Source of the DNA: an uncultured Ruminococcus sp.
GTDB lineage: Bacteria; Bacillota; Clostridia; Oscillospirales; Ruminococcaceae
Length of the DNA stretch: 64,000 nt
Reading direction: 5' to 3'
Assembly: GCA_947627175.1 (NCBI GenBank)
Contig: CANQVA010000007.1
Coordinates: 1,050-65,049, forward strand
A program made the translations under genes and the position numbers. The notes beneath the pieces are model-generated. The model had not been told where the DNA came from and made no database searches. It was given only the letters and a program-made list of their open reading frames with translations. Positions 8,361 to 28,479 of this stretch are shown here, piece by piece. Position 1 is the first letter of the stretch. Each line of letters starts with the position of its first letter.

Positions 8361-8444
8361 GCGGATATGGCGGAATAGGCAGACGCGTTGGCTTCAGGTG
8401 CCAATCGGGGCAACTCGGTGCAGGTTCAACTCCTGTTATCCGCA
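8361..8444 (+). tRNA. tRNA-Leu(CAG)
   Basis: Acceptor GCGGATA/TATCCGC. Anticodon stem TTGGC/GCCAA with loop TTCAGGT (anticodon CAG). Long variable arm and T-loop GGTTCAACTCC. CCA is not encoded. Confidence 0.9.
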
Positions 8445-8450
8445 CTATGA

Positions 8451-8477
8451 AAAGTTCGGTTTTGCCGAACTTTTTTG
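8451..8477 (+). terminator. rho-independent terminator after tRNA-Leu
   Basis: GTTCGG (8454-8459) pairs with CCGAAC (8465-8470), followed by T6. Confidence 0.75.
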
Positions 8478-8482
8478 CATCT

Positions 8483-8520
8483 AAAAAAACGGCTGTATAT
8501 TTTACAGCCGTAATTTTTTT
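8483..8520. terminator. bidirectional terminator shared by tRNA-Leu and the convergent uptake operon
   Basis: ACGGCTGTA (8489-8497) pairs with TACAGCCGT (8503-8511). A-run upstream and T7 downstream. The stop codon of the minus-strand ATPase (8502-8504) lies inside the stem. Confidence 0.7.
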
Positions 8521-9623
8521 AATATATCATCAGTTTGAATAAGAAGTCCGAATTTTTCGGCAGTTTCAAGCAAAACGTCATTGCCCTTGTTCATAGTCCC
8601 CCATTTGTTACAAGTATTTATTACAGCAGAACATTTTTTCATTATCTCCAGTGCTTTTTTTACAGATAAATCGCTTACAGGTTCAAAAGCCTTTTCTATA
8701 ACTGTTTCGACTGCAAGTGACATAATTACAGGATATTCAATGTCATTTTCATGAACGACACCTGCGGAAAATGGTATTCCCATACGCTGTAAACGCCGAT
8801 AAACAGATATACCGTCACCGCCTCCCGATATAACAAATATCTGCGGTTTTCCTTGTGGACGTTCCAGTTCTGCGGAGCAATAATAATGATTAAAATTTTT
8901 ATTATTCATGTTATAAAGTCTGCTGATATAGTCACCTGAAAAAATTTCTTCAGGCGTGCCGTTTTTTTCTGCCATACCGTTATTTATGCAGATAATACGG
9001 TCAGAAACTTTCTGTGCAAGGTCAAGTTCATGCAGTGACATAATTACTGCAAGATTTTTTTCTTTCACAAGTTTTTTCAGTATATTCAGAAGTTCAAGTT
9101 TATGATGTATGTCAAGAAAAGATGTAGGCTCATCAAGTACAAGTATTTCAGGTTCTTGACATATCGCCCTTGCAAGCATTACACGCTGTCGCTGTCCGTC
9201 GCTTATACAGTTGAAATCAGTGTATTTCAAAGACTCTACACCGACAAGTTTCATCGCTTCATCAGTTTTTTTACTATCATTTTTTGAAAGTATTCCAAGT
9301 CTGTTTGTATACGGATAACGCCCCGATTCAACTACATCTCCGCAAGTCATAAGTTCAGGTTCAATGCGTTCCGTCATTACGGCAGACATACTTCTTGAAA
9401 CTTCGTTACCGCTCATTTCACGGATATTTTTGCCATTTATAAAAACCGCTCCGCCCATGATTTCAAGCTGTTGCAATATGCTTTTAAGTATTGTAGACTT
9501 TCCCGAACCATTAGCACCTATAATAGTAAGTATTTCTCCGTGACGTACTTTAAAATCAATATCACCGACTATTATTTTTTTTCCATACCCTACTGAAAGA
9601 TTTTCCGCACATATTACATTCAT
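8502..9623 (-). CDS. FecE/BtuD-type ABC ATPase with an extra ~125-aa C-terminal domain
   Basis: Walker A GANGSGKST, signature ISDGQRQRV, Walker B ILVLDEP, H-loop SLHEL within the first ~250 aa. An added alpha/beta-looking domain follows (IFVISGGGDG...IPFSAGVVHEND...AVINTC). Confidence 0.85.
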   Translation of the reverse strand: MNVICAENLSVGYGKKIIVGDIDFKVRHGEILTIIGANGSGKSTILKSILQQLEIMGGAVFINGKNIREMSGNEVSRSMSAVMTERIEPELMTCGDVVESGRYPYTNRLGILSKNDSKKTDEAMKLVGVESLKYTDFNCISDGQRQRVMLARAICQEPEILVLDEPTSFLDIHHKLELLNILKKLVKEKNLAVIMSLHELDLAQKVSDRIICINNGMAEKNGTPEEIFSGDYISRLYNMNNKNFNHYYCSAELERPQGKPQIFVISGGGDGISVYRRLQRMGIPFSAGVVHENDIEYPVIMSLAVETVIEKAFEPVSDLSVKKALEIMKKCSAVINTCNKWGTMNKGNDVLLETAEKFGLLIQTDDILKKLRL

Positions 9624-9624
9624 T

Positions 9625-10638
9625 TCACAATTTCCTCCGCTGTTTTTTAAGCATTATCCACATTACAACAGGTGAACCGAATACTGCTGTAACTGAACTT
9701 ATACTCAATTCTACAGGTGAAAAAAGCGTCCTTGCTATCAAATCACAAAAAAGACAGAAAACTGCTCCGCCAAGAAAAGACGCAGGAATTATAATTATCG
9801 GTTTTGCCGTTCCGAAAAGGCTTTTGACAAGATGCGGTACAGCTATCCCCACGAATGAAACAGGCCCTGCAAAAGCCGTTACACAGGCAGAAAGCAAGCT
9901 GGACAAAAGAATAAGTTCCGCACGGAATAGTTTTATATTTACGCCCATATTTATAGCATATCCCTCCCCCATTTGATACGCACTCATAGGTTTTGACATA
10001 AGAAATGCACACACAAGCAAAACAAATGATATAATGGAAATTACTTTTATATCGTCCCAATCCGTTCCCGAAAAAGTTCCCATAGACCAGTTATGAAGAT
10101 TGACAATGTTTGAATCATCCGCAAAGGTCACTATAATATCAGTCACAGCAGAACATATGTAACCAATCATTACACCGCTTATTATCAGAACTGACATTTT
10201 TTTTACTCTTCCCGAAATAATAAGAATAAATCCCATTGACATAATTGAACCGATAAACGCAGAAATTACAAGTGACGCTGAATTGAGAATAATTCCCCTG
10301 CTTAGAAAAAATATCATCACTGCCGCCGAAACAAGTTTTGCACCCGACGAAATTCCGAGTATAAAAGGCCCTGCAATGGGATTTGAAAAAAACGTCTGCA
10401 AAAGAAAGCCTGACAGCGATAACGCTCCGCCGAGAATCAAAGCCGATGTAATTCTTGGCAGTCTTATTTTGAATATTATATTATACTCTGAAATATCATT
10501 GCTTTTTCCGAAAAGTATGTCAATAACCTCATTCAGCGAAAATTTTACACTTCCTGATATAAGATTTAAAAAAAACAGTATACACATACAAGTAAGCAGA
10601 ATAAGAAAGCCTGTGAAATAACGTGATTTTTTATTCAT
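9625..10638 (-). CDS. FecCD/BtuC-family ABC permease
   Basis: Polytopic 337-aa protein with typical FecCD features (RLPRI, GxxLSLSG, GPVSFVGIAVPH). Confidence 0.85.
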   Translation of the reverse strand: MNKKSRYFTGFLILLTCMCILFFLNLISGSVKFSLNEVIDILFGKSNDISEYNIIFKIRLPRITSALILGGALSLSGFLLQTFFSNPIAGPFILGISSGAKLVSAAVMIFFLSRGIILNSASLVISAFIGSIMSMGFILIISGRVKKMSVLIISGVMIGYICSAVTDIIVTFADDSNIVNLHNWSMGTFSGTDWDDIKVISIISFVLLVCAFLMSKPMSAYQMGEGYAINMGVNIKLFRAELILLSSLLSACVTAFAGPVSFVGIAVPHLVKSLFGTAKPIIIIPASFLGGAVFCLFCDLIARTLFSPVELSISSVTAVFGSPVVMWIMLKKQRRKL

Positions 10639-10649
10639 AATTCCTCCAT

Positions 10650-11792
10650 TCAGTAAAGTCTGTGCATAAATTCAAGCTGTTTTTCAGTATCCGCTTTACC
10701 GGTGACTATAAGATAAATGTCATGTATCATTTCAGACGCTCCTGTTGTCTGCTGAAACATATTTTTTTCCGTACACCATACATTATTATTTTTTACGGCA
10801 CGGAAATCCGCAAGCAGTTCATTTTTTTCAATAAGCTGTGAAACGTTTTCAAGCTCTCCGTCGATTGTACTATTATATATTATATAATCTGCGTCCTTTG
10901 CTTTCTGATAGAAAGATTCCATTTCCATATTCATTGTTGAAAGGGCATTGTCCTCAATATTCAGGTCATCTTCCGTAAAAATATATCGTCCTCCCGCAAG
11001 TTCTATCATTTTTGAAATATAGTCATCAGGCTTGCGGATATTAGCATATCCGTTAGATGTTATATAGAAAAATGCAACTGTTTTCCGTTCGTTTTCGGGA
11101 ATATCTGTATCTTCTGATACTTCACCGAAAATTTTCATTTTTTCATTGAAAAATTCTTCTGCTTCTTTTTCACGTCCCATAATAAGACCGTAAAGTTTTA
11201 TCCATTCAAGCCGCCCGAGGGGGTGAGTTTCATAGCTTGACCGCTCAACCATTACGGGCACATCAAGACTTTCAAGCTGTTCCTTTGTTTCGGGGCTATG
11301 ATAAATCATTGTCGATTCAAGAGCAAGTCCGCAGTTTTCAGAAAGTATTGTTTCATAGTCAGGCGTGCTGTATTTCCCGACATACGTCATATTTCCGCTT
11401 TCAATGGCATTTTGTACAGACGGCAGACTCCAGTCACTTAATTTTGTAGAAGTCATTTTTACTTCATCAAGTGAACCTATACCGTCGAACAAATCCATTG
11501 ATGACGATGCGGCAACATATATATTTTCTACAGGTTGATGTATTACTGTAATATCACTGTCTGTTTCGGGTTCAGGTACACCCTCCGGAACAAGCAGAAA
11601 TTTCTGACCGTCAGCTATATTTATTTCATAACTTCCGTCGTCAAGAGAATACACCGAGAACTGTTCCGCATATTCAAGACTAATTTTGTTTTTTGAATGA
11701 ACATTTTCTGTAGATGTCTTTGCCGTACCGCACGAACAGCAAAAAATATTAAATACTATCAGCGGAATTATAAATTTAATTTTACTAATCAT
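10650..11792 (-). CDS. lipoprotein, type-III periplasmic-binding-protein (BtuF/FhuD-like) substrate-binding component
   Basis: Signal peptide with Cys-rich lipobox region (IFCCSCG). Position ahead of the FecCD permease and ATPase. 4-nt overlap with the upstream gene. Confidence 0.7.
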   Translation of the reverse strand: MISKIKFIIPLIVFNIFCCSCGTAKTSTENVHSKNKISLEYAEQFSVYSLDDGSYEINIADGQKFLLVPEGVPEPETDSDITVIHQPVENIYVAASSSMDLFDGIGSLDEVKMTSTKLSDWSLPSVQNAIESGNMTYVGKYSTPDYETILSENCGLALESTMIYHSPETKEQLESLDVPVMVERSSYETHPLGRLEWIKLYGLIMGREKEAEEFFNEKMKIFGEVSEDTDIPENERKTVAFFYITSNGYANIRKPDDYISKMIELAGGRYIFTEDDLNIEDNALSTMNMEMESFYQKAKDADYIIYNSTIDGELENVSQLIEKNELLADFRAVKNNNVWCTEKNMFQQTTGASEMIHDIYLIVTGKADTEKQLEFMHRLY

Positions 11793-12697
11793 AATTTTAC
11801 AATCGTAGACGAATCGAAATAAAGTGTATATTCTATTTCATGAGGTGTACTCATTGCAGTAGTATCGGCTGATACAGGCATTTTAAAATCAAACGATGAT
11901 ACGGGAATTTCAAATGTTGAATTTTCTACTTCCGATATAGGCAGATATTTTTCACTATCAACAATCATATAATCATAATTACTACTGTTCCATATTATTT
12001 TTGCCGTTGCCACGCCGTCTGCAATAGTCAATTGAGTATGCGGTAATATGCTTGCTTTTCCCGAACCGCCCTCAAGTGATACTTCAATTGTGTAATCGCC
12101 GTCAGTAAGTCCCAATGATTCAACAGTATTTACTGTGCCGTCCGCAAAGGCATCTGATGGGAGAGAATCTGCACGGAAAAGTATTGTGCGGTCATACCAT
12201 TTTTCTTTTTTGTCGCTGAATGCCGTGCAGTCTATTCCCATGTCAAGAGCCTCAACCGGCACTGTGAACTTATGAACGCCGTTATCTTCCACAAAATCTA
12301 TATATTCACTTTCATCTGCCGTTTCAGCTTCCGCACCTGTTCCCATAAAAAGATACCTGTAGCCTGTTCCGCTCATAGTCATAACAGCAGACATTTTGCC
12401 TTCCTTGACAGTAAGTTCACACGCCGTTATTTTAAACATTGAAGAACTTGAATTTACTTCAATCGGATATATTCCGTCCTTTATTTCGTCTGCATAAACG
12501 GGTGTCATTCCCTCTTCCACTACTTCAACAGGTGCAACTGTTCCGCCCTGAAAATCAACATTTTCTTCACTTTCAGCAACTTCTTCCTGTTCCGTAACTA
12601 ATGCTGAACTTTCTGTTTCTGATGACGTACTTTCACTGCATGACACAGACATTGATGCAAATACGCACATCATACATAATAATAAAATCTTTTTCAT
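11789..12697 (-). CDS. surface lipoprotein of unknown function with two homologous ~100-aa beta-rich modules
   Basis: Lipobox SVSC, then an acidic linker. Module 1 begins DGIYPIEVNSSSSMFKITACELTVKEGKMSAVMTMSGTGYRYLFMG. Module 2 begins DGDYTIEVSLEGGSGKASILPHTQLTIADGVATAKIIWNSSNYDYMIV. Confidence 0.7.
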   Translation of the reverse strand: MKKILLLCMMCVFASMSVSCSESTSSETESSALVTEQEEVAESEENVDFQGGTVAPVEVVEEGMTPVYADEIKDGIYPIEVNSSSSMFKITACELTVKEGKMSAVMTMSGTGYRYLFMGTGAEAETADESEYIDFVEDNGVHKFTVPVEALDMGIDCTAFSDKKEKWYDRTILFRADSLPSDAFADGTVNTVESLGLTDGDYTIEVSLEGGSGKASILPHTQLTIADGVATAKIIWNSSNYDYMIVDSEKYLPISEVENSTFEIPVSSFDFKMPVSADTTAMSTPHEIEYTLYFDSSTIVKL

Positions 12698-12749
12698 AAA
12701 TACCTCACATTAAAACAGCGGAAAGAAAATTTCCCTCCGCTATATTTTT

Positions 12750-13787
12750 TTATTTTATTGAATCAATAGCAGTCTGTGCATGGTCAACATAAATCTGTCT
12801 TATATCCTCATTTTCGCCCAGACCCCTTAAAATACACTCTACTTCATAGCCTTCCGCCTCAAAAACAGACTTCCATGAATCTTCTTCATCGCCTGCCATA
12901 TCGTTGTTTGCATGGTCACCACAAACTACCATAAGCGGTTCAAGGACAACCTTTTCATATTCACCATCTTTAACTTTTGCAAGTATGGTGTCAATTGAAG
13001 GTTCAGCCTCAACTGTTCCTATGAAATAATTTTCATATCCGTCGGCAATAAGTAAATCCTGCATTTTCTGATAAACGCCGTTTGACTCAGCCTCTGTACC
13101 GTGACCCATGAAACATATAGCTGTCTTTCCGTCATCATACTCGGCAGTCCAGTCAACTATTGCCTGCTCAACTCGCTTGAAATCGTCGTCACTTGTAAGA
13201 AGTGGTTCACCAAAAGCAACTTTTTCAAAAGCGTCTGAATACTGTGCAACTTCATCAATGATATCATTGTATTCAAGACCATTCATAAGGTGAGTTGGCT
13301 GTACAACAAGATTCTTTACTTCATTTGCAACAGCTCTGTCAAGTGATGCCTTTACATTATCTATAAGAACGTCATCACGCCTTTTAACGTGGTCAATGAT
13401 TATATCAGCAGTAAATCCACGCCTTACAGAATAATCAGGGAACGCCGTTTCAAGTGCATTTTCAATTGCACCTATAGTAAGACGGCGACTATCGTTAAAG
13501 CTTGTACCAAAACTTACAACAAGCAATTCATTTTCACCGATTTCGTTCTGATTTCTTACATTATCCAGAGACGCATCACCGGTATCATAATTTTCTTCGT
13601 CCTCTGATGTTTCTGCATCTGATTCTTCGGCATTTTCCGTTTCAGATTCAGATTCAGTTTCAGCCACTGTTTCGGAAACTGATGATTCAGAAACAGAACC
13701 GCTTTCGGAAACTGATGAATTATTATCTCCGCAAGCTGTAAACAATGTGCTTGCCATAGCAAGACAAAGTATAGTTAATTTTTTCAT
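12750..13787 (-). CDS. exported lipoprotein with a CbiK-type (class II chelatase) domain
   Basis: Lipoprotein signal MKKLTILCLAMASTLFTAC, then a ~60-aa Ser/Glu-rich linker. CbiK-like LLVVSFGTSFNDSRR, VVQPTHLMNGLEY and FMGHGTEAESN, so both chelatase His motifs are retained. Confidence 0.75.
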   Translation of the reverse strand: MKKLTILCLAMASTLFTACGDNNSSVSESGSVSESSVSETVAETESESETENAEESDAETSEDEENYDTGDASLDNVRNQNEIGENELLVVSFGTSFNDSRRLTIGAIENALETAFPDYSVRRGFTADIIIDHVKRRDDVLIDNVKASLDRAVANEVKNLVVQPTHLMNGLEYNDIIDEVAQYSDAFEKVAFGEPLLTSDDDFKRVEQAIVDWTAEYDDGKTAICFMGHGTEAESNGVYQKMQDLLIADGYENYFIGTVEAEPSIDTILAKVKDGEYEKVVLEPLMVVCGDHANNDMAGDEEDSWKSVFEAEGYEVECILRGLGENEDIRQIYVDHAQTAIDSIK

Positions 13788-13831
13788 AAGTAATTCAATC
13801 CTTTCTGTTATACAAAAAGGTAATCAATTGT

Positions 13832-13861
13832 AAAAAAAGCCTTCCGCACACGGCAGAAAGC
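13832..13861 (-). terminator. riboswitch expression-platform terminator
   Basis: On the minus strand GCTTTCTGCCG-TGTG-CGGAAGGC is an imperfect hairpin followed by T7, about 45 nt before the RBS/ATG at 13787. Confidence 0.55.
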
Positions 13862-13939: not shown

Positions 13940-14155
13940 TTCTGTACCAACATTCCGGCAGGTTTCCTGACTCAAGGTTCATCGTATACGGCAAGCCTTC
14001 CCGACTGAATATCAGTGACTTCACCATGAAAAATCACAGCAAAAAGCCGTACACTCCCCAATCACAGTGACGAGTTCGCACAGGATTCACACCTGTTTCC
14101 CTTTTACCTTTTGACCCCGCAGAAAGCGGACAAAAGCACCGGACTGCTATTTAAT
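13940..14155 (-). promoter_or_regulatory. cobalamin (B12) riboswitch
   Basis: On the minus strand: AAGGGAAACAGGTGTGAATCCTG (rc of 14083-14103), CACTGTGATTGGGGA, and B12 box AGTCAGGAAACCTGCCGG (rc of 13955-13972). It lies in a 478-nt non-coding gap. Boundaries are approximate. Confidence 0.85.
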
Positions 14156-14177
14156 TTTTTGTGATATCACATATATT

Positions 14178-14206
14178 ATTATAGCAGTATTCACAAACAA
14201 ATGCAA
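14178..14206 (-). promoter_or_regulatory. promoter of the riboswitch-controlled uptake operon
   Basis: TTGCAT (rc 14201-14206), 17-nt spacer, TATAAT (rc 14178-14183). Confidence 0.65.
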
Positions 14207-14265
14207 GCATTTTTGTAATTTTGTACAATAAATCAATTTGAATTAACTTTATATACTTTTTTTGC

Positions 14266-14889
14266 CTATTTTGTCATATAAAGTAAGGCATTACAAATTG
14301 CCGCCGCAACGTTGCTACCACCTTTACGTCCTTTTGCGACTATGTACGGCACGCCCGTCCGCATTATCATTTCCTTTGACTGTATAACATTCACAAAACC
14401 AACAGGCACGCCTATAACAAGTTCCGGAATAAAAGTCTTATTTTCTATGTGTTCACAAAGTCTTATCAAGGCAGTTGGAGCATTTCCAACCGCATATATA
14501 ATCGGTCTTTTAAGTTTGCTTGCCTTATCAACAGATGCAGACGCTCTTGTTGTGCCGTTTCTTTTCGCACATTCGGCAACGTCACTGTCAGCCATAAAAC
14601 ACATTGCCTCACAGCCAAGTCTTTCAAGTGCTTTTTTGTTTATTCCTGATTTTGTCATGTTCGTATCAGTGACAATTACTGCACCTTTTTTAAGCAAATT
14701 GACTGCATGGTCAATGACATTTTCCGAAAAACACATATTATTATAATAATCAAAATCGGCAGTTGTATGAATTACCCTCATAACAACAGGCTTTATATCG
14801 TCCGCAAGTTTTCTGTCACCGAGTTCACATTCTATTATTTCAAAACTTCTCTTTTCTATTTCGTCGGGCAATACATATTCAAGTTCCAA
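14266..14889 (-). CDS. cbiC: cobalt-precorrin-8 methylmutase
   Basis: VIHTTADFDY, VTDTNM, AVGNAPTAL motifs. 207 aa. Lies within the cob cluster. Confidence 0.9.
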   Translation of the reverse strand: MELEYVLPDEIEKRSFEIIECELGDRKLADDIKPVVMRVIHTTADFDYYNNMCFSENVIDHAVNLLKKGAVIVTDTNMTKSGINKKALERLGCEAMCFMADSDVAECAKRNGTTRASASVDKASKLKRPIIYAVGNAPTALIRLCEHIENKTFIPELVIGVPVGFVNVIQSKEMIMRTGVPYIVAKGRKGGSNVAAAICNALLYMTK

Positions 14890-14890
14890 A

Positions 14891-16354
14891 TTATTTCACT
14901 CCATTTTCAATAATTCTGTAAAGCATATCCATATTTATATTGTTTCTCACACTGTCAGCAAGTATGTCAAACTGCTTTTCCTTATATTCCCGACGGTCTG
15001 AATTTCCGCCCATATAATTTATGCCTTTTTCTTCAAAAAGTCTGCGTACTATTCTTTCGGAAACACTGTCAAAAATCCCGTGAACGTAACAACCGTAAAC
15101 ATTATTTTTATATGAACCTCCGCAGGACGTTAAAGTATTACCCATGTTTTCAGTAATTCCCATATGTATTTCATATCCCGAAAACTCAGCACCTGAAAGA
15201 CACGAAAAAAAACCCTCTATATCAAGAAACTTTCCGCTCACTTGTGACTGATTTTTTTCTCTGCTGAAAACCGTTGTACAATCAAGAAGATTCATTCCGT
15301 CAATACTTCCGCCGTTTTCTGTTTCAAGGGGGTCTGAAATTTTTCTTCCGAGCATCTGATACCCTCCGCATATAGCAAAAATCGGCACACCCTTTTCCGC
15401 ACGTTTTTTTATCATTGCTTCAATACCGTTTTCACGAATCCATTTCATATCGGAAATTGTGCTTTTAGTTCCCGGAATTATTATCATATCGGCTTTTTCA
15501 AGTTCTGTATATTTTGTCACATAGCGAACGCTTACACCGTCATATTGTGAAAATACGTCAAAGTCCGTAAAATTTGATATTCGTGGCAGTCTTATAACTA
15601 CAATGTCAATAATTCCGTTGCTGTTGTTTTCAAGTTTATGCGAAAGGCTGTCCTCATCCTCAATATCACAGTTTATATACGGCACTACACCGAGAACGGC
15701 TTTATTGCTACGCTGACGCAGAATGTCCACACCGCTGTTAAACAGCGATTTGTCACCCCTGAATTTATTCACAACAAGCCCTTTAACAAGATTGCGTTCA
15801 TCAGATTCAAGAAGATTAAGAGTGCCGATAAGCTGTGCAAAAATACCGCCCCTGTCAATATCGCCCACAAGAAGTACGGGAGATTCAGCAAGTTTTGCCA
15901 TACCCATATTTACAATATCGTCTTGTTTCAGATTGAGTTCTACAGGACTTCCTGCACCCTCTATTACTATTATATCGCTATGTGCTGAAAGTTCATTGTA
16001 CGCTTTCATAATATCAGGAATAAATTCTTTCTTTCTCCTGAAATATTCCCTTGCACTCATATTTCCTATTGGTCTGCCGTTTACTATAACTTGTGAGCCG
16101 GTATCAGTTGTAGGTTTAAGCAAAATAGGATTCATAAGCGGTGACGGTTCTGCACCTGCCGCTTCAGCCTGCATTGCCTGTGCCCGTCCTATTTCACTGC
16201 CGTTTCTTGTTATGTACGAATTAAGAGCCATATTTTGCGATTTGAACGGTACACACAAATAACCGTCCTGTCTGAATATTCTGCAAAGTGCGGCAGTAAA
16301 AAAACTTTTTCCGACGTTTGACATCGTCCCTTGAATCATTATAGATTTAGCCAT
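14891..16354 (-). CDS. cbiP: cobyric acid synthase
   Basis: N-terminal IMIQGTMSNVGKS P-loop and a C-terminal GATase-like domain (ICGGYQMLG). 487 aa. Confidence 0.9.
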   Translation of the reverse strand: MAKSIMIQGTMSNVGKSFFTAALCRIFRQDGYLCVPFKSQNMALNSYITRNGSEIGRAQAMQAEAAGAEPSPLMNPILLKPTTDTGSQVIVNGRPIGNMSAREYFRRKKEFIPDIMKAYNELSAHSDIIVIEGAGSPVELNLKQDDIVNMGMAKLAESPVLLVGDIDRGGIFAQLIGTLNLLESDERNLVKGLVVNKFRGDKSLFNSGVDILRQRSNKAVLGVVPYINCDIEDEDSLSHKLENNSNGIIDIVVIRLPRISNFTDFDVFSQYDGVSVRYVTKYTELEKADMIIIPGTKSTISDMKWIRENGIEAMIKKRAEKGVPIFAICGGYQMLGRKISDPLETENGGSIDGMNLLDCTTVFSREKNQSQVSGKFLDIEGFFSCLSGAEFSGYEIHMGITENMGNTLTSCGGSYKNNVYGCYVHGIFDSVSERIVRRLFEEKGINYMGGNSDRREYKEKQFDILADSVRNNINMDMLYRIIENGVK

Positions 16355-17381
16355 TCAAAATCCTCCTCAGTGCTGATACAAGAATAATATTTTCCTCATG
16401 ATTTCTGACAGCAGTCCTGAAAAAACCTTTTTCAAGTCCTCTGTAATTACTACAATTTCTTATCAGAATTTTATCCCTTTCAAGAAGTACATCAAGAGGT
16501 AAATCACTTTTGAAAAAAATAAAATTTGCCTCCGGTTGAAATACTTTCAGTCCCATTTCTGAAAATTCATTTATAAGAAACTCACGTTCTTTTCTGATAA
16601 GTTCAACAGTTTTCAATAAATAATCAGTTTCGCCAAGTGCAGAAATTCCTGCGGACTGTGCAGGCACGGAAACACTCCAATATTGCCCTGTATGCTGTAC
16701 TTTTTCAGCTAATTCACTGCTTCCGAAAACAGCATATCCAAGTCTTAAACCTGCCATGGCATATATTTTTGTGAAAGCCTTCAGAATAATTATTTTACTG
16801 TTAAGAAAATTATGTGAACTTTTATTTTTTCCGTCACATACAAAGTCCATAAAGCACTCGTCACATACAAGTATAATATCATTTTTCAGGCATTTTTCAG
16901 CGATATTTTCAAGCAAAACGGAATTTACAGTTTTCCCTGTGGGATTGTTCGGACTGCAAAGAAAAACAATGTCAATATCATTTGTAAGCAGTTCGACAAA
17001 ATCAGGCATGACATCAAAATTATTTTTTTCAGACAAAATATATTCTGTGATTTTACAATTGTTTTCTGTAAGTGCTTTTCCGTACTCTGCAAAAGACGGC
17101 GAACAGATAACAGCATTTTCAGGTTTCATAGCTGCAATAATTCTGTATATAAGGTCGTCCGCACCGTTTCCGCAGACAATACAGCCTGATGGAACATTTT
17201 CATAATCTGAAATTTTCCCGACAAGTTCAGTACAAAAAGGGTCAGGATATTTGTTACATAAATAAGCCGATTCAATAACGGCATTTCTTACACTCTCAGG
17301 CATTCCAAGAGGATTGATATTTGCCGAAAAATCAAGATAATTTTTATATTTATATATATTTCCTCCGTGTTCGTCCGTCAT
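16347..17381 (-). CDS. cobD: threonine-phosphate decarboxylase (class I/II aminotransferase fold)
   Basis: HGGNIY start motif, PLP-enzyme layout, position between cbiB and cbiP. Confidence 0.8.
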   Translation of the reverse strand: MTDEHGGNIYKYKNYLDFSANINPLGMPESVRNAVIESAYLCNKYPDPFCTELVGKISDYENVPSGCIVCGNGADDLIYRIIAAMKPENAVICSPSFAEYGKALTENNCKITEYILSEKNNFDVMPDFVELLTNDIDIVFLCSPNNPTGKTVNSVLLENIAEKCLKNDIILVCDECFMDFVCDGKNKSSHNFLNSKIIILKAFTKIYAMAGLRLGYAVFGSSELAEKVQHTGQYWSVSVPAQSAGISALGETDYLLKTVELIRKEREFLINEFSEMGLKVFQPEANFIFFKSDLPLDVLLERDKILIRNCSNYRGLEKGFFRTAVRNHEENIILVSALRRILNG

Positions 17382-18343
17382 TTGAGTATTCCTCCGAAAA
17401 CCGTCATTCTGAAAATTATTCCCAATAAAAGCACTATCACTGACGACATATACATAAGTTTATTTACACGTCGTATATCTTCATTTTCAATCTTTCTCAC
17501 ATCGTCGCCTATGAATTGTTTTTTATGGAGTTCACCGAAATAATAAGCATCGCCTGCAAGCTGTACATTCAATGCACCTGCACATACAGATTCTGTCTGT
17601 GCTGAATTTGGGCTTGCGTGATTTCGTCTGTCACGTTTCCATATTCTGTATGCATTTTTTCCGTCAAATCCTAATATATAGGCTGAAAAAATCATGACAA
17701 CAGCCGTTATTCTTGACGGCAAAAAATTAGCAACATCGTCCAGCTTAGCGGAAAAACGCCCTATATCCGCATATTTTTCATTTTTATATCCAATCATTGA
17801 ATCCATTGTGTTTACTGATTTGTAGAAAAATCCGCCAATTGCTCCGAAAAGTGACATATACATAACAGGTGCGGTTACGCCGTCGCAAGTATTTTCCGCA
17901 ACAGTTTCAACAGTTGCCTTTATAATGCCTTTTTTATCAAGTACATCTGTATCACGTCCCACTATCATTGAAACAGCATATCTTGCCTTTTCAGTATCTC
18001 CCTCACTTACAGCATTGAAAACTTTCATACTTTCCGTTTTAAGGCACTTCGGGGCAATCATATAATAACACATTATCCCTTCAATGATAACGCCGATATT
18101 GAATTTATAACAGAAAATCAGAATTATAAGCGGTATTCCTACTGAAAACAAAATGACCGTCATTGCAAGAATTATTCCGCCTAAACGCAGTTTATTCGGC
18201 ATTGATTTTCTGATATTTTTCTCCATAAATGAAATAAGTCTGCCTATTGCCCTTATAGGGTGCGGGAGTTTATAAGGGTCGCCGAGCAGGCAGTCAATTA
18301 AAAAACCGATAACAAGCGGTGCAGTTAAAATAATACTCTTCAT
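17378..18343 (-). CDS. cbiB: adenosylcobinamide-phosphate synthase
   Basis: LLGDPYKLPHPIRAIGRLI signature. Membrane protein of 321 aa. Confidence 0.9.
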   Translation of the reverse strand: MKSIILTAPLVIGFLIDCLLGDPYKLPHPIRAIGRLISFMEKNIRKSMPNKLRLGGIILAMTVILFSVGIPLIILIFCYKFNIGVIIEGIMCYYMIAPKCLKTESMKVFNAVSEGDTEKARYAVSMIVGRDTDVLDKKGIIKATVETVAENTCDGVTAPVMYMSLFGAIGGFFYKSVNTMDSMIGYKNEKYADIGRFSAKLDDVANFLPSRITAVVMIFSAYILGFDGKNAYRIWKRDRRNHASPNSAQTESVCAGALNVQLAGDAYYFGELHKKQFIGDDVRKIENEDIRRVNKLMYMSSVIVLLLGIIFRMTVFGGILK

Positions 18344-18897
18344 ATTTCCTCCGATATGGTTATTTTTCTGTCACTGTATTCAGTGACAAAACCATGACCG
18401 TTTTTTACCTGCCAATCATAATAATTTCTATGTGGAATTGCAAATTTTTCCATTATTGACATAATTGTTCCGCCATGAACAACAAATGAAAGTTTTTTGT
18501 CACTGTATTTTCTGACCGTCTTAATAAAAATATCAATGCACCTTTTACGAAAGTCATGCGGATTTTCACCATAAGGAAAAGTATCTATGCCGTTGCTATC
18601 AATCCATTTCTGATAGTCGGGATTTTCTGAAAGTTCAATATAATTTTTCCCCTCAAAGTTACCAAAATCACATTCACGCAAATCGTCGCATATAATAATT
18701 TTTTTATCAGGATATATAATTTCTGTCGTCTGAATACAACGTTTCATTGGACTTGAAATTACTATATCACAGTCAGGATATTTATTGTTTTTTATTTCTT
18801 CTTTTCCCTCTGTACACAATTGCTCATCAGTTCTGCCTATGTACCTTTTTTCAATATTTCCTACTGTTTTTCCGTGACGTATAAAATTTATAATCAT
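18340..18897 (-). CDS. cobC: histidine-phosphatase family, alpha-ribazole phosphatase
   Basis: FIRHGKTVGN (RHG motif) and HGG later in the protein. ATGA start/stop overlap with the upstream gene at 18894-18897. Confidence 0.75.
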   Translation of the reverse strand: MIINFIRHGKTVGNIEKRYIGRTDEQLCTEGKEEIKNNKYPDCDIVISSPMKRCIQTTEIIYPDKKIIICDDLRECDFGNFEGKNYIELSENPDYQKWIDSNGIDTFPYGENPHDFRKRCIDIFIKTVRKYSDKKLSFVVHGGTIMSIMEKFAIPHRNYYDWQVKNGHGFVTEYSDRKITISEEI

Positions 18898-19280
18898 ACA
18901 TTTTTCCCCTTTATATACGTCCCTATTCCGCATATTACCCTTACAACACTACAAGAATTTTCCGCAATGATACAACCGCACTTTCCGCACATCTCACGCC
19001 ATATTCTTTCACCCTTTTCAATGGGAATTATTCCACAGCCGACTTCATTCATAATAACAGTAATATCATCGTTTTCTGAACATAGTCTGACAGTAAATTC
19101 AACAGGGTCAATATTTTCGTCCATTAACCTCCTGATAAGAATATGATAATTCTTTATACACTTTGTTGTAAAGACTTCTGATATATTACATTTTTCACCG
19201 TCTTTAATTTCTGATATGCCAAATTCTGAAACGGCAAATTTCGTTTTTCCCTGATAAACTCCCCCGATAATCATTTTCAT
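18894..19280 (-). CDS. short CobU-like paralog lacking the guanylyl-histidine segment
   Basis: IIGGVYQGKT P-loop. The C-terminus VIMNEVGCGIIPIEKGERIWREMCGKCGCIIAENSCSVVRVICGI aligns with VIVTNEVGNDGISYEKGTEEYIACMGKINRKIAEAAENVIECVYGI of the full CobU at 20044-20565. GGGAGGTG RBS before ATG 19280. Confidence 0.65.
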   Translation of the reverse strand: MKMIIGGVYQGKTKFAVSEFGISEIKDGEKCNISEVFTTKCIKNYHILIRRLMDENIDPVEFTVRLCSENDDITVIMNEVGCGIIPIEKGERIWREMCGKCGCIIAENSCSVVRVICGIGTYIKGKNV

Positions 19281-20053
19281 TTTATAAGCACCTCCCATAA
19301 GCAAGCGGAAATTACAGCCGAAGCAAGTACAGATATTTCACACACCTGCAAAAACCAACCGCAAATATCCCCCGTAATTCCGCCGAAAGTCTTGTAAGAA
19401 AATTTTCTGTAGTAAATCATCACACATACAGCTGTAATTATACTTATAGTCCCTGAAAAACAGTCAGACAGAATCATTCCCGAAAAACACATCATAATAA
19501 AAAATACCATTACAGCCATAATTATTTTTTTGTGAGCAGGTTTCACAAAGTTTTTAAGACTGCTTTCCGATTTTGCAGGTTTAAAAAAAATTGCCGAAAG
19601 TCCGCTCATAGACCTTGAAAGCACAAAACCACAAGCAACAATAAAAGCTGTTTTCCATTTATCCAATTGCGAAAACAACGCAGTCTGAATAATAAAATAC
19701 ATACACAGATGAATTACTGCAAATGCTCCTATATGTGAATCTTTCATTATGGAAAGACGTTTTTCAATATCTACGTATGATGACTTTGCATCAGTAACAT
19801 CACAGAAACCGTCAATATGAATACCGCCCGTTACAATAACCGGTATCATCGTCGAGCCTGCTCCAAACAGAAAAGAATTGATATTCAATTTTATACATAT
19901 AAACCGCCAAAGCAGAAAAATTCCCCCGATAACTGCACCTATCAGCGGAAAAAAACAAAGGGCATAACGCCTGTTTTCCTCTTTCCATTCAACACGTGGC
20001 ATTGGTATGCGTGAATACATAAGAAATGCAGAAAAAAATGATTTCAATAACAT
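19277..20053 (-). CDS. cobS: adenosylcobinamide-GDP ribazoletransferase (cobalamin synthase)
   Basis: Polytopic membrane protein with FLMYSRIPMP near the N-terminus. The start at 20053 (MLLKSFF) overlaps the cobU stop. Confidence 0.85.
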   Translation of the reverse strand: MLLKSFFSAFLMYSRIPMPRVEWKEENRRYALCFFPLIGAVIGGIFLLWRFICIKLNINSFLFGAGSTMIPVIVTGGIHIDGFCDVTDAKSSYVDIEKRLSIMKDSHIGAFAVIHLCMYFIIQTALFSQLDKWKTAFIVACGFVLSRSMSGLSAIFFKPAKSESSLKNFVKPAHKKIIMAVMVFFIMMCFSGMILSDCFSGTISIITAVCVMIYYRKFSYKTFGGITGDICGWFLQVCEISVLASAVISACLWEVLIK

Positions 20054-20565
20054 AATTCTCCTTTCAGAACAAAAGGTATTCCATAAACACATTCTATGAC
20101 ATTTTCAGCGGCTTCAGCAATTTTTCTGTTTATTTTACCCATACAGGCAATATATTCTTCCGTTCCTTTTTCATAGGAAATACCGTCGTTTCCAACCTCA
20201 TTCGTGACTATAACAAGATGTTCTGCAATGCTGTCAAGATATTTAATATCTCTTATAATTTTTTCTGTAGGATTTATTATTCTGCCGTCAACAAACATCT
20301 CATTTGCACATAGATTTCCCATACATTCAAGCAAAACAACACACTTTTCAGGTAGAGTTATTTCACTCAGATTATTATATTTTCCTATTGTTTTAAAACC
20401 CTTTCCTTTACGCATTTCACGATGTCTTTCAATCGCCTGAAAAGCCTCATCACCGTATGGCTTCATAGTTGCAATGTAGAATTTTTTCCCCGAAAAACCG
20501 CATATTATCCTTTCAGCAAGTGAGGATTTCCCACATTTTGAACCGCCTGTTATAAGTGTAATCAT
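20044..20565 (-). CDS. cobU: adenosylcobinamide kinase / adenosylcobinamide-phosphate guanylyltransferase
   Basis: ITGGSKCGKSSLAE P-loop, IERHREMR His segment, TNEVG motif. 173 aa. Confidence 0.9.
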   Translation of the reverse strand: MITLITGGSKCGKSSLAERIICGFSGKKFYIATMKPYGDEAFQAIERHREMRKGKGFKTIGKYNNLSEITLPEKCVVLLECMGNLCANEMFVDGRIINPTEKIIRDIKYLDSIAEHLVIVTNEVGNDGISYEKGTEEYIACMGKINRKIAEAAENVIECVYGIPFVLKGELCY

Positions 20566-21611
20566 TTAAGTTCAACATACCTTTCCATGCCGATTTCGTC
20601 AAACCTATGGGCATTTCTGTAAAGTGAAACAGCACCGTCCAACAACGGCAACAACATTATACCGCCTGTACCCTCACCAAGACGCAGACCGGCATTTATA
20701 ACTGCTTTAAGCCCCATAGATTCAAGGAGTTTTATATCGGCAGGTTCGTCCGAAACGTGTCCGGCAAGCATATATTCAACACACAAAGCATTCATTCTAT
20801 AAGCAATAAATGCCGCCACCGCAGAAATTACACCGTCTATTATTACAGGAATATTATAAACTGCTCCGCCTAAAAAAAGACCTACCATTCCGGCAATGTC
20901 AAATCCGCCGACTTTTGCAAGAACTTCAAGCGGATTATCTTTGTCAGGACGATTAAACGCAATAGCACGTTTTATTGCAGAAATCTTTCTTTCAAGTCCG
21001 TCAGTTGTAAGACCTGCTCCACGTCCTGTTACTTCCTCAACGGGCATATTAAGAAGTACCGACGAAACTGCACTTGACGTTGTAGTATTTCCTATACCCA
21101 TTTCACCGGCAACAATAATTTTGAATCCCTTATTTTTCAGGTCTTGCACAATGTCAATTCCTGTACAGATTGCTTTTTCTGCCTGATTTATAGTCATTGC
21201 AGGTGAAACAGTTATATTATTTGTACCATAAGCAATTTTTCTGTTTATAATATTTCTGTTTTCTATATCGTGATTTATTCCTATATCAATTGATATAACG
21301 TCTGCACTGTAAACGTCTGCAAGGGCATTTATATTAGAATGTCCCTCTGCAATTGATACAGCACTTAACGCTGTAATTTCACTTCCCGTCTGCGTAACGC
21401 CCTCACATACAACGCCGTTGTCTGCACACATTATTACAACTGCTCTTTTTGAAATATCAATGTCATAAGTTCTCTGAACAGATGCTATTTTCTGAATAAA
21501 TTCCTCCAGCATTCCGAAACTTCCGAGAGGTTTTGCAATGCTGTCCCACTGTTTTTTTGCCGAAACCGCTGACAATTTGTCAGTCGGTTTTATTCTGCTT
21601 ATTCTATACAT
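20562..21611 (-). CDS. cobT: nicotinate-nucleotide--dimethylbenzimidazole phosphoribosyltransferase
   Basis: GEMGIGNTT motif, 349 aa, cluster context. Confidence 0.9.
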   Translation of the reverse strand: MYRISRIKPTDKLSAVSAKKQWDSIAKPLGSFGMLEEFIQKIASVQRTYDIDISKRAVVIMCADNGVVCEGVTQTGSEITALSAVSIAEGHSNINALADVYSADVISIDIGINHDIENRNIINRKIAYGTNNITVSPAMTINQAEKAICTGIDIVQDLKNKGFKIIVAGEMGIGNTTTSSAVSSVLLNMPVEEVTGRGAGLTTDGLERKISAIKRAIAFNRPDKDNPLEVLAKVGGFDIAGMVGLFLGGAVYNIPVIIDGVISAVAAFIAYRMNALCVEYMLAGHVSDEPADIKLLESMGLKAVINAGLRLGEGTGGIMLLPLLDGAVSLYRNAHRFDEIGMERYVELK

Positions 21612-22945
21612 TTTTTTCCTCCGTATTCAGCACAAGCACGTGCAAAACGTTCTGCAATTTCAATGTCTGTATAAAAATAAATGTGCGGAAAACCTGCATA
21701 CATTTTTTCACTGCATTTACAGCATTTCCATGACCTGCCGTCATGTTTTACAGCGGTAAGACTTTTTCCGCAGTCTGTACTGTCCCAATAATGAAACTCA
21801 TGTGCATTTATTCTGTTGCCCTTTTTAAAAAGCAGACTGTCATTTTCAGAATTAAGAGTAACATAACCGAACCGCTGAAGTCTGTCTGTTCTGTAAACAT
21901 ATGATTCAAAAATCCCTGCCATATTATAAATTTCATTATTTTTCTCTATGTATTTATGAAGATACATAAATCCGCCACATTCCGCAATTATCGGAATACC
22001 GCCATTTATAAGTGTTTTTACAGACTCACGCATTGAAACGTTGTCCGAAAGTTGTTCGGCATAAAGTTCCGGATAGCCTCCACACAGAATAAGTCCGTCC
22101 GCACATTCGGGAACACGTTCGTCAGCAAGAGGAGAAAAATATATTATTTTACAGCCGATTTTTTCAAGCAGTTCAATGTTATCCTTATATAAAAAACAAA
22201 AAGCCTTGTCCTTTGCCACTGCCACAACAGGCGGACTGTCTGATATTTTTTTAATATCAATCTCTGAAAATTCCGGAAATTTCCTTTCAGAACAATTTAT
22301 AATTCTGTCAAGCAGAATATTTTTTTCCGCAAGTTCTCCTAAAAATTTAATTCTGTCCTTTATATCTGAAATTTCGTCAGCCGTCACAAGTCCGAGGTGA
22401 CGGCTTTCAACTGTGTATTTATGAACAGGCAGAAAACCGAAATAATTCGTATTAAATTCACTACATATTTTCTTTGCAGACGGAACAAGCTTTTCAGTAA
22501 GTCTGTTGAAAATAACTCCACATATATTATTAGGCACTCTGTACGTAAGAAAACCTTTTATTACTGCACCTATAGAATCACTCATACCCTTACAGTCAAC
22601 AATAAGAATAACATTTGTATCAGTAATTTCAGAAACTGAATAAGCCGAGCCTTTGCCGTCTACTCCGTCATAAAAGCCCATAACCCCCTCAATTACTGAA
22701 ATATCACTGTCTTTGCCGTTTTCATAAAGTATATATTTGATTGTATTTTCATCACAAAAAAAAGTGTCAAGATTATGTGAATCAGTTCCTGTTATTTTCT
22801 CATAGAACATAGGGTCTATATAATCAGCACCGCACTTGAAAGATGATACTTTCATTCCACGTCTGCACAATGCCTCCATAATCGCACAGGTTATTGTAGT
22901 TTTTCCGCAGCCACTCCCCGTTCCCGCAATTATTATTCTCTTCAT
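21599..22945 (-). CDS. cbiA: cobyrinate a,c-diamide synthase
   Basis: IIAGTGSGCGKTT P-loop and a C-terminal glutamine amidotransferase (ECGGFMYL). Confidence 0.9.
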   Translation of the reverse strand: MKRIIIAGTGSGCGKTTITCAIMEALCRRGMKVSSFKCGADYIDPMFYEKITGTDSHNLDTFFCDENTIKYILYENGKDSDISVIEGVMGFYDGVDGKGSAYSVSEITDTNVILIVDCKGMSDSIGAVIKGFLTYRVPNNICGVIFNRLTEKLVPSAKKICSEFNTNYFGFLPVHKYTVESRHLGLVTADEISDIKDRIKFLGELAEKNILLDRIINCSERKFPEFSEIDIKKISDSPPVVAVAKDKAFCFLYKDNIELLEKIGCKIIYFSPLADERVPECADGLILCGGYPELYAEQLSDNVSMRESVKTLINGGIPIIAECGGFMYLHKYIEKNNEIYNMAGIFESYVYRTDRLQRFGYVTLNSENDSLLFKKGNRINAHEFHYWDSTDCGKSLTAVKHDGRSWKCCKCSEKMYAGFPHIYFYTDIEIAERFARACAEYGGKKCIE

Positions 22946-24114
22946 TTTATTTTCCTCTTTATCACAAACACCGGATTTTCTGCCGAAAACATAGTATGAC
23001 TACCGGCTTTCCGTGTTCTTGTAATGGCAATTTGAATAATTTCAGCATCAAAAACATTCATACACTCATTAAGCGTTTCAAGTGAAACAGCCGTTGCAAC
23101 TATTTCGGCATACGGATTCAATCCGATAACATATTTTACTATATCCGCAATTTTTCCTGACGAACCACCTATGAAAACACAGTCCGGAACAGAAATATCT
23201 TTCGGAATATCATAAGGAAACGCACTGCCATACACATGGATATTGTCACAACTGAATTTTAAAGCGTTTTCAGTAGTAAGTTTCACGGCTTCTGAATTTT
23301 TGTCAAATGCATAAACACAACCTTCCGAACACTTCAACGCCATTTCAATCGATACCGAACCGGTACCGCAACCAATATCCCAGCAGATACTCTTTTTTCC
23401 GATATTAAGCCGTGAAACAACAACAGCACGAACTTCTGCTTTTGTCATCGGAATTTTAGTTCTTATAAAATCCCTATCATCAATCCCTGACGGAATAATA
23501 TAATTTTTATTTTCGGCAATGACCGCACATAAATTTTCTGTCTTGACGTTTTTCAAATTTTCTGCCGTTCCTGATATAATGCGTTCATTTTCATAACCGA
23601 GATTTTCACCGATAAAAATATTGACTTCACTCAGACCATACCGACAAAGTGTTTCACATATTACAGCAGGTGTAATTTTTCCTCCGAGAAGAAAAAAACA
23701 CATTTCGTTCTGCATGACATTTACGGCAATATTTCCGTTTTTTCCGTGTAGACTGACAAATTTCATATTTTCCCACTGTCTGCCAATCTTTGAACATAAA
23801 TAGACAGGTGTTGAAATTCCGCTGATAATTTCACAGTCTGTACAATATTCGGAAAGTTTTTTTGCTCCGCTGTAAAATCCGCAATCTCCCGACATTAAAA
23901 CCGCAATTTTATCACGTCCGCAGTTATTTATATAATCTTTTATTTTTTCTGCTGAATATTCACAAAACATATCTTTGTGAAGATGTTCAAACGGTTCAAG
24001 CATACGTTCTGCACCAATAAGAACATCAGCCGAATTTATAATTTCATATGCTTCACGGGTAATCGTTTTTATACCGTCCATACCCGTCCCGACTATGTAA
24101 ACCATTTCAATCAC
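22942..24114 (-). CDS. cbiET: fused cobalt-precorrin-7 C5-methyltransferase / cobalt-precorrin-6B C15-methyltransferase (decarboxylating)
   Basis: N-terminal tetrapyrrole methylase fold (IVGTGMDG) and a C-terminal SAM MTase (WDIGCGTGSVSIE). Confidence 0.85.
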   Translation of the reverse strand: MIEMVYIVGTGMDGIKTITREAYEIINSADVLIGAERMLEPFEHLHKDMFCEYSAEKIKDYINNCGRDKIAVLMSGDCGFYSGAKKLSEYCTDCEIISGISTPVYLCSKIGRQWENMKFVSLHGKNGNIAVNVMQNEMCFFLLGGKITPAVICETLCRYGLSEVNIFIGENLGYENERIISGTAENLKNVKTENLCAVIAENKNYIIPSGIDDRDFIRTKIPMTKAEVRAVVVSRLNIGKKSICWDIGCGTGSVSIEMALKCSEGCVYAFDKNSEAVKLTTENALKFSCDNIHVYGSAFPYDIPKDISVPDCVFIGGSSGKIADIVKYVIGLNPYAEIVATAVSLETLNECMNVFDAEIIQIAITRTRKAGSHTMFSAENPVFVIKRKIK

Positions 24115-28478: not shown

Positions 28479-28479
28479 T

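Follow-up and report, generated by a model that had tools for sequence, protein, structure and literature searches.

A gene for a CbiK-type class II chelatase was analyzed in a 64-kb stretch of DNA from an uncultured Ruminococcus sp. (contig CANQVA010000007.1), which is called the window here. The predicted product is an exported lipoprotein. Judged from the nucleotide sequence, its gene is the first of an operon for tetrapyrrole or corrinoid import under the control of a cobalamin (vitamin B12) riboswitch. Accordingly, the CbiK protein very probably works outside the cytoplasm, under B12 regulation and together with an ATP-binding cassette (ABC) importer, on a tetrapyrrole or a corrinoid. An export signal was found on the CbiK domain, and genes for a binding-protein-dependent ABC importer adjoined it. 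The protein is a Gram-positive variant of the exported CbiK proteins known from Desulfovibrio and Porphyromonas. The coordinates of all features are collected in Table 1.

Export signal and start codon of the CbiK lipoprotein

The N-terminus of the protein (MKKLTILCLAMASTLFTAC) consisted of a basic n-region with K2 and K3, a hydrophobic core, and the lipobox L-F-T-A-C, in which Cys19 would be the lipidated residue. The protein was classed as a lipoprotein, with Cys19 as the modified cysteine, by a rule that asks for a basic n-region, a hydrophobic h-region, and a lipobox of the form [LVI..][ASTG..][AGS]C with the Cys within residues 15-35. A lipobox was present in 67 of the 82 homologous CbiK open reading frames (ORFs), and most of the others had a type-I signal peptide or were truncated at the end of a contig. 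Furthermore, the signal peptide was kept across about 80 species despite its divergent sequence. The in-frame ATG, GTG, and TTG codons located before the CbiK domain (codons 11, 15, 41, and 88) had no Shine-Dalgarno-like sequence. An internal start was rejected, because the ATG of the ORF alone among the in-frame starts was accompanied by such an element.

Dockerin proteins encoded in the window indicated that the host is a cellulosomal Ruminococcus and a monoderm, and the lipoprotein is therefore placed on the outer face of the cytoplasmic membrane. The closest named relative was WP_024859518.1 from Ruminococcus flavefaciens (GCA_000526795.1), and the gene order and the cobalamin riboswitch in that genome were the same as in the window.

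CbiK domain and catalytic residues

The Pfam family CbiK (PF06180) matched residues 88-341 with 271.6 bits (cut-off 26.2, E=8e-81). The best solved relatives found by sequence were CbiK from Salmonella enterica (1qgo, E=8e-44) and FetB from Porphyromonas gingivalis (9b86, E=7e-40), and the periplasmic CbiK from Desulfovibrio vulgaris (CbiKP, 2xvx) was matched with E=2e-31. The AlphaFold2 (AF2) model of the lipoprotein had an overall predicted local distance difference test (pLDDT) value of 73, with residues 1-73 disordered. The two-lobed alpha/beta chelatase fold was recovered in this model, and the target-normalized template modeling (TM) scores from Foldseek were 0.90, 0.91, and 0.88 for 1qgo, 2xvx, and 9b86, respectively.

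The catalytic His145, Glu175, and His207 of the S. enterica enzyme corresponded to H229 (GHGTE), E260 (TVEAE), and H292 (CGDHANND) of the window protein. In addition, H166, the histidine of the QPTH sequence, was a further conserved residue of the domain. In the family alignment, H166, H229, E260, and H292 were invariant (81/81 members). The haem ligand His96 of CbiKP was replaced by Asn174 in the window protein, and the same position was occupied by N, D, T, E, S, A, or H across the family. The pairwise identities to S. enterica CbiK, FetB, and CbiKP were 35.8%, 33.5%, and 29.8%, respectively. By this measure, the window protein appeared no nearer to the exported CbiKP and FetB than to the cytoplasmic Salmonella enzyme.

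Between the lipidated cysteine and the domain, two segments were distinguished. Residues 20-64 formed an acidic tether, in which 13 Ser and 13 Glu occurred per 45 residues. The following motif, ENYxTGDASLDxxRNQDxIGExE, preceded every CbiK domain in the exported family, including each domain of the relatives with tandem CbiK domains, and it was not found in the aligned sequences of S. enterica CbiK, FetB, or CbiKP. The AF2 model gave no confident structure for the motif (pLDDT about 40-60). This acidic segment (residues 65-87) could be a docking or metal-handling element.

These results could be compared with an earlier note on the same DNA, which had proposed that the one CbiK-type chelatase of the window is an exported lipoprotein. 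The ORF, the lipobox with Cys19, the complete CbiK domain, and the lack of any other CbiK or CbiX in the scanned ORFs were all in agreement with that proposal. The lipoprotein signal described there was likewise borne out by the rule and by the 67 lipobox-bearing homologues. A downstream start had been named as a possible refutation; it was looked for, and no internal start with a Shine-Dalgarno-like element was found. The note had also described a Ser/Glu-rich linker of about 60 residues. Residues 20-64 were indeed of low complexity, while residues 65-87 proved to be a conserved family motif and not a linker. Both of the His motifs it listed, QPTHLMNGLEY and GHGTEAES, were present, but H166 of QPTH was not the second catalytic histidine, which is H292.

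Riboswitch control and operon structure

The cobalamin riboswitch model RF00174 matched the region upstream of cbiK on the same strand with 93.2 bits, compared with a gathering score of 31.5. A terminator hairpin (13861-13839) with a T7 tail was located between the aptamer and the ribosome-binding site. Four genes followed cbiK on the same strand, and their junctions were short or overlapping. The operon thus had the order CbiK lipoprotein, NEAT-like lipoprotein, BtuF/IsdE-class binding lipoprotein, BtuC-like permease, and ATPase. The hairpin after the cbiK stop codon (12715-12743) may be a partial terminator, by which CbiK would be made more abundantly than the transporter.

NEAT-like partner and ABC importer

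The second gene of the operon encodes a protein of 302 amino acids for which no Pfam (E<=0.001) or NCBIfam match was obtained. Its homologues often carried a precomputed NEAT (PF05031) match. At E<=0.01, Pfam NEAT matches were found in 32 of 40 aligned homologues (best 8.9e-9), all of them below or near the cut-off. The AF2 model (pLDDT 81) consisted of two all-beta domains, and its best Foldseek matches in the PDB were IsdX1 (3sik, TM 0.70), IsdX2-N5 (4h8q, 0.69), and Hbp2-N2 (4myp, 0.66). Matches covering both domains were IsdH-N2N3 and IsdB. According to the predicted structure, the partner has the eight-stranded immunoglobulin-like NEAT fold; this fold was seen by structure prediction only, because the PDB sequence search gave nothing significant.

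The canonical haem-ligating motif YxxxY was not evident in the last strands of the NEAT-like protein. Invariant tyrosines, Y168 and Y290, were located on the last strand of each domain, in the contexts WYDRTxxF and EYTLYF, and an invariant SSSxMF segment followed the first strands of domain 1. These residues may act as ligands. Moreover, the protein had a lipobox instead of an LPXTG sortase anchor.

For the binding lipoprotein, the sole NCBIfam match was IsdE, which was weak (24 bits), and the sequence search of the PDB gave no significant relative. The best NCBIfam match of the permease was BtuC (201 bits, equivalog cut-off 334), and that of the ATPase was the 'corrinoid ABC transporter ATPase' (203 bits, cut-off 537). 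A Peripla_BP_2 protein, a FecCD permease, and an ABC ATPase under B12 control together make up a type II ABC importer with a BtuFCD-type layout, and none of the importer genes reached an equivalog-level match to BtuC, BtuD, or BtuF. The ATPase was also about 120 residues longer than usual, and its homologues carried a C-terminal PF27219 (MJ0874) domain.

Conservation of the operon across species

A scan with one genome per species gave at least 593 related places, and the locus counts reported here rest on the best 80. These loci belonged to Ruminococcus, other Oscillospiraceae, Lachnospiraceae, Enterocloster citroniae, Evtepia gabavorous, and others. With the Rfam model, 16 of 18 loci had a cobalamin riboswitch directly upstream of cbiK; a profile derived from these matches detected one in 66 of 74. 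The exceptions included L028 and L071, in which the gene was located inside a cbi operon directly after cbiF or cbiJ. The NEAT-like gene was next after cbiK in 74/77 loci, and it was followed by the genes for the binding protein (64/69), the permease (62/67), and the ATPase (56/62). Natural fusions of CbiK with the NEAT-like protein were found in five loci, one of which had two CbiK domains, and five further loci had fusions of the NEAT-like protein with the binding protein.

Relatives with tandem double-CbiK domains, about 580-900 amino acids long, occurred at L067, L080, and L084 and among the homologous proteins (P0001, P0013, P0030, and P0052). The protein at L080 had two CbiK domains followed by a NEAT-like domain, and the NEAT-like partner at L084 was apparently split into two ORFs of about 175 amino acids.

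At least three ring-synthesis genes were located within 10 kb of the operon in 22 of 46 long loci. In 14 loci, the ring genes (cbiD-L-F-G-H-J-ET-A) came directly after the ATPase gene on its strand, and 14 loci had a ring gene at most 700 nucleotides upstream on the same strand. The operon was found away from cbi genes in, for example, L011, L012, L018, L038, L056, and L084. No second match to the CbiK query was found in any of the 80 loci, and a Pfam census of 125 flanking ORFs of related loci gave no recurrent chelatase, hem gene, or cobalt transporter.

One relative without a signal peptide was found at L077 (9992-10813) in an uncultured Ruminococcus. It was 273 amino acids long and had no riboswitch and no transport genes. 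It was rejected as a cytoplasmic paralogue, since its 120 nearest relatives were at least 327 amino acids long except for one short copy that was 98% identical. L077 therefore looks like an isolated secondary truncation and not a cytoplasmic clade.

Adjacent cbi operon and search for another chelatase

The gap-free operon next to the riboswitch contained, in order of transcription, cbiL, D, F, G, H, J, ET, A, cobT, U, S, an ORF resembling the tail of CobU, cobC, cbiB, cobD, cbiP, and cbiC. Pfam scans of 14266-29160 gave no chelatase, no hem, cobA, or sirC gene, and no cobalt transporter gene, which upheld the statement of the earlier note that the cbi cluster has no cytoplasmic cbiK or cbiX. 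The scan of the whole 64-kb window covered ORFs of at least 120 amino acids, and nearly all such ORFs that did not overlap a longer one; no second CbiK and no CbiX, hemA/L/B/C/D, cobA, sirC, or cbiMNQO was found in them. The cbi operon had no riboswitch of its own, and its start overlapped the stop of ksgA (14158-14266, 29160-30017). The terminator scan gave no hit between cbiC and the riboswitch, and hence read-through transcripts may also be riboswitch-gated.

The ORF of 136 amino acids between cobS and cobC (18894-19304, minus strand) matched only the last approximately 55 residues of CobU. Because an equivalent small ORF was kept in L008, L014, L020, and L032, it probably represents a genuine gene rather than debris.

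Comparison with known systems

The S. enterica CbiK (1qgo/2xwp) was the best match in sequence and structure (E=8e-44, 35.8% identity, TM 0.90), and its catalytic residues were identical. However, this textbook anaerobic sirohydrochlorin cobaltochelatase is cytoplasmic and lacks the signal, the linker, and the N-terminal motif. Its gene stands in a cbi context, alongside cbiMNQO and a substrate supply derived from cysG.

CbiKP from D. vulgaris resembled the window protein in combining a CbiK fold (TM 0.91) with an export signal and in retaining the catalytic His/Glu/His set. The window protein is a predicted lipoprotein of a monoderm, whereas CbiKP comes from a diderm and is soluble in the periplasm. 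The haem-bridging His96 of CbiKP was not conserved in the window protein (29.8% identity), and CbiKP lacks both a NEAT-like partner and the ENYxTGDAS motif. A further CbiK, in the cytoplasm, is reported for D. vulgaris. The cbiK-cbiL genes of Desulfovibrio are controlled by a B12 element, as is btuCDF (PMC545781).

The IhtB/FetB protein from P. gingivalis (9b86) is likewise a CbiK-type lipoprotein with an extracytoplasmic location. Its gene accompanies those of IhtACDE (PMC12094164). A permease, an ATPase, a binding protein, and a receptor are encoded along with it. The host has no precorrin-2 synthesis yet keeps the later B12 pathway, and its best chelatase homologue is the surface FetB/IhtB. 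Unlike the window protein, with which it shares 33.5% identity, IhtB/FetB is located on the outer membrane and works with a TonB-dependent receptor. It has been read as part of a haem/iron or Mn-porphyrin system and has no NEAT-like partner.

The Isd haem relays (IsdA/B/C/H-IsdE-IsdF from Staphylococcus aureus, and IsdX1/2 from Bacillus anthracis) also lead from NEAT surface proteins to a Peripla_BP_2 lipoprotein and a FecCD permease, and the arrangement of two NEAT domains in the window partner resembled IsdH and IsdB. The Isd relays are under iron/Fur control and use a sortase anchor, whereas B12 control and a lipid anchor were found here. Furthermore, the CbiK operon differed in that there was no clear YxxxY, a chelatase-fold protein heads the relay, and the ligand is presumably a cobalt tetrapyrrole. 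The BtuG and BtuH proteins from Bacteroides are comparable as accessory lipoproteins of riboswitch-controlled B12 uptake loci that capture the ligand outside the cell. Their folds (beta-propeller and DUF4465) are unrelated to CbiK, they belong to outer-membrane systems with BtuB, and they have no chelatase ancestry.

A search of the open-access literature gave no description of a Gram-positive exported CbiK, no paper linking NEAT domains to corrinoids, and no proposal of an exported CbiK as the chelatase of precorrin-2 salvage.

Proposed function

The earlier note had suggested that the protein acts outside the cell on corrinoids or other tetrapyrroles and may serve as a recruited, B12-regulated scavenging receptor. 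This suggestion was strengthened by the riboswitch with its terminator, by the operon with three transport components and a NEAT-fold lipoprotein, and by the conservation in about 80 species with natural fusions. In the proposed mechanism, low cellular adenosylcobalamin would cause the terminator to be bypassed, and the relay proteins would be made. The exported CbiK would then take a tetrapyrrole into its chelatase cleft. The ligand would be handed from CbiK to the NEAT-like protein and on to the binding protein, in the same order as in the natural fusions, and the ABC importer would bring it into the cell.

The reading that we favor, plausible if somewhat short of an even chance, is that the lipoprotein is still catalytic and inserts cobalt into a salvaged ring precursor outside the cell. 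Class II chelatases need no ATP, and therefore can act in that location. Co2+ would be inserted by the exported CbiK into a metal-free salvaged precursor, most likely sirohydrochlorin (oxidised precorrin-2). After import, cobalt-sirohydrochlorin would be used by CbiL, with which the neighboring cbi operon, itself without a chelatase, begins. FetB, a homologue at the cell surface, catalyzes the insertion of Co and Mn into porphyrin and is required for the formation of surface Mn-porphyrin (PMC13065792). R. flavefaciens SAb67 and Ruminococcus sp. HUN007 were described as 'precorrin-2 salvagers' without HemA/L/B/C/D and precorrin-2 synthase, and the uptake route of the precursor was left open by Shelton et al. 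(PMC6461909). Cobalt insertion outside the cell followed by import of the complex would close this gap with the genes present. The intact active site also favors this reading, as does P. gingivalis, in which a lack of precorrin-2 synthesis is likewise combined with a surface CbiK encoded in a transport operon.

A stronger proposal, which we regard as rather doubtful, is that the exported CbiK is the sole chelatase of the pathway in precorrin-2-salvaging Clostridia such as R. flavefaciens. Anaerobic B12 synthesis would then have its committed step, cobalt insertion, outside the cell, and the NEAT relay and the BtuFCD-type importer would deliver cobalt-sirohydrochlorin to CbiL. If so, the tetrapyrrole and cobalt would enter together, and no separate cobalt transporter would be needed.

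Several observations weigh against a chelatase role of the exported protein. The window protein missed the cut-off of the NCBIfam CbiK equivalog NF047852 (227.4 bits, cut-off 400), which denotes the same function as characterized CbiK. The tandem duplication of the CbiK and NEAT domains looks receptor-like, and the accessory lipoproteins of the Bacteroides B12 uptake loci are plain B12 binders. The availability of free sirohydrochlorin in the rumen or gut is, to our knowledge, undocumented. In addition, a finished corrinoid could have its cobalt coordinated by the invariant CbiK residues. Internal precursor synthesis was also encountered: at L061 (Candidatus Merdiplasma, 6300-10949) the operon was followed by hemC, a cobA-hemD fusion, hemB, and hemL, and one Lachnospiraceae genome had a cytoplasmic hemC-cbiK fusion. 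E. citroniae (L056) was described as a 'PBG salvager' (porphobilinogen salvager) with HemC, HemD, and precorrin-2 synthase (PMC6461909). Since the operon coexists with internal precorrin-2 synthesis in such cases, the exported CbiK cannot serve as the pathway chelatase in every host. Elsewhere in the genome, a CbiK or CbiX of the cytoplasm may be encoded, possibly together with a separate importer for the precursor, and the existence of such an enzyme decides between the chelatase and the receptor readings.

Alternative explanations

Among the alternatives, a non-catalytic corrinoid receptor is a possibility that we take seriously, albeit tentatively. Here, the CbiK and NEAT folds would have been co-opted as high-affinity binders of cobamides or cobinamide that hand their ligand to the BtuFCD-type importer, with the conserved histidines ligating cobalt, as a Gram-positive counterpart of BtuG/BtuH. 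A riboswitch-controlled BtuFCD-like operon fits the usual logic of cobamide uptake, and the tandem CbiK domains, tandem NEAT-like domains, and fusions resemble avidity modules. The receptor would also agree with the occurrence of the operon together with internal precursor synthesis and away from cbi genes, and the Bacteroides systems provide precedents for multi-protein extracellular B12 relays. However, a receptor leaves unexplained what feeds the chelatase-less cbiL-to-cbiC operon in a lineage reportedly without precorrin-2 synthesis. Moreover, the whole catalytic set, including Glu260, was invariant, and FetB, the characterized exported homologue, is an active chelatase. We know of no CbiK-family protein that has been shown to bind cobalamin. 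The chelatase and the corrinoid-receptor readings are not mutually exclusive.

The acquisition of haem or iron, as proposed for IhtB/FetB and CbiKP, is improbable. In that case, haem would be bound by CbiK, or its metal removed or swapped, and the uptake of haem or iron would fall to the NEAT-like protein and the importer. Haem relays are indeed classically built from NEAT domains and IsdE-class binding proteins, and both FetB and CbiKP bind haem. However, a cobalamin riboswitch in 66/74 loci and the proximity to cbi genes would be pointless for supplying iron, and the best transporter matches were BtuC and a corrinoid ATPase. The ligand His96 of CbiKP was Asn in the window protein and variable across the family, and FetB was without dechelatase activity on haemin (PMC13065792). 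Haem as the main function was rejected on the basis of the B12 control and the absent CbiKP haem ligand.

The capture of cobalt ions is still less probable. In this case, Co2+ would be captured outside the cell at the His/Glu/His site and passed to the importer, and the operon would serve B12-regulated cobalt uptake. The scanned ORFs of the window contained no cobalt transporter, none was recurrent in the related loci, and cobalt importers are commonly riboswitch-controlled (PMC7689651). On the other hand, the NEAT-like partner points to a tetrapyrrole. It is also generally known that FecCD/BtuC-type importers with Peripla_BP_2 proteins carry chelates (siderophores, haem, and B12) and not free ions.

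An ordinary cytoplasmic pathway CbiK, whose N-terminus would be non-functional, uncleaved, or left untranslated by a downstream start, is very improbable. The name 'sirohydrochlorin cobaltochelatase' given to the protein and its homologues in databases and the position beside the cbi operon are in its favor. Against it, the signal peptide is kept in about 80 species although its sequence diverges, none of the internal starts is preceded by a ribosome-binding site, fusions to lipoproteins or NEAT-like domains occur and two further lipoprotein genes adjoin. Moreover, L077, the only relative without a signal, stands alone as a truncated outlier.

Table 1. Features of the exported CbiK operon and the adjacent cbi/cob operon in the window.
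Feature	Position	Strand	Basis or remark
Terminator at operon end	8489..8511	-	Terminator scan
ABC ATPase with C-terminal extension	8502..9623	-	Pfam ABC_tran
FecCD/BtuC-type permease	9625..10638	-	Pfam E=2e-80
Substrate-binding lipoprotein, Peripla_BP_2, BtuF/IsdE class	10650..11792	-	Pfam E=5e-29
Tandem NEAT-like lipoprotein, 302 aa, unannotated family	11789..12697	-	AF2, Foldseek, homologue profile matches
13-bp hairpin with weak T tail, between cbiK stop and NEAT-like gene	12715..12743	-	Terminator scan
Exported CbiK-type class II chelatase lipoprotein (predicted)	12750..13787	-	ORF, 345 aa, ATG start
CbiK domain, residues 88-341	12765..13526	-	Carries H166, H229, E260, H292
Family-specific N-terminal motif ENYxTGDASLDxxRNQDxIGExE, residues 65-87	13527..13595	-	Alignments
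Ser/Glu-rich low-complexity tether, residues 20-64	13596..13730	-	Composition; AF2 pLDDT below 50
Lipoprotein signal peptide and lipobox, residues 1-19, Cys19 as lipidated residue (predicted)	13731..13787	-	Rule-based test
Shine-Dalgarno-like GAAAGGA	13799..13805	-	11 nt upstream of cbiK ATG, read from sequence
Intrinsic terminator of riboswitch expression platform	13832..13861	-	Terminator scan; 9-bp stem then TTTTTTT
Cobalamin riboswitch aptamer, operon leader	13940..14158	-	Rfam RF00174, full model 1-189
Gap-free cbi/cob operon, cbiL to cbiC	14266..29160	-	Pfam scans

Other genes in the window

A module resembling bacitracin/lantibiotic resistance (3129-8156, minus strand) adjoined the CbiK operon and consisted of a histidine kinase, ABC-2 permeases, an ABC ATPase, and an OmpR-type response regulator. 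It was separated from the operon by a transfer RNA gene (8361-8444). Dockerin-bearing secreted proteins were encoded on the plus strand at 1478-2944 and 53385-54767, one of them with CHAP and ricin-type lectin domains. Furthermore, the genes of a three-subunit HydABC-type [FeFe] hydrogenase, of the electron-bifurcating type by domain content, were located at 48744-52955 on the minus strand.

Implications

Thousands of such proteins are named 'sirohydrochlorin cobaltochelatase' in databases, and genome-based predictions of B12 synthesis may count them as the cytoplasmic enzyme. If the sole copy is extracellular, the designation of many rumen and gut Clostridia as B12 'producers' may be wrong or conditional. 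The operon is also a testable candidate for how the salvagers of tetrapyrrole precursors (Shelton et al. 2019) obtain and metalate their precursor. If true, cobalt insertion outside the cell would also explain the B12-pathway 'enigma' (2000) of P. gingivalis and its surface FetB. The long-puzzling exported CbiK proteins of Desulfovibrio and Porphyromonas thereby gain a wider, B12-linked context, and a Gram-positive, B12-regulated surface relay would be formed from two tetrapyrrole-binding folds, CbiK and NEAT. The results suggest that bacteria such as this rumen-type Ruminococcus capture the building blocks of B12 outside the cell and perhaps load cobalt into them there.

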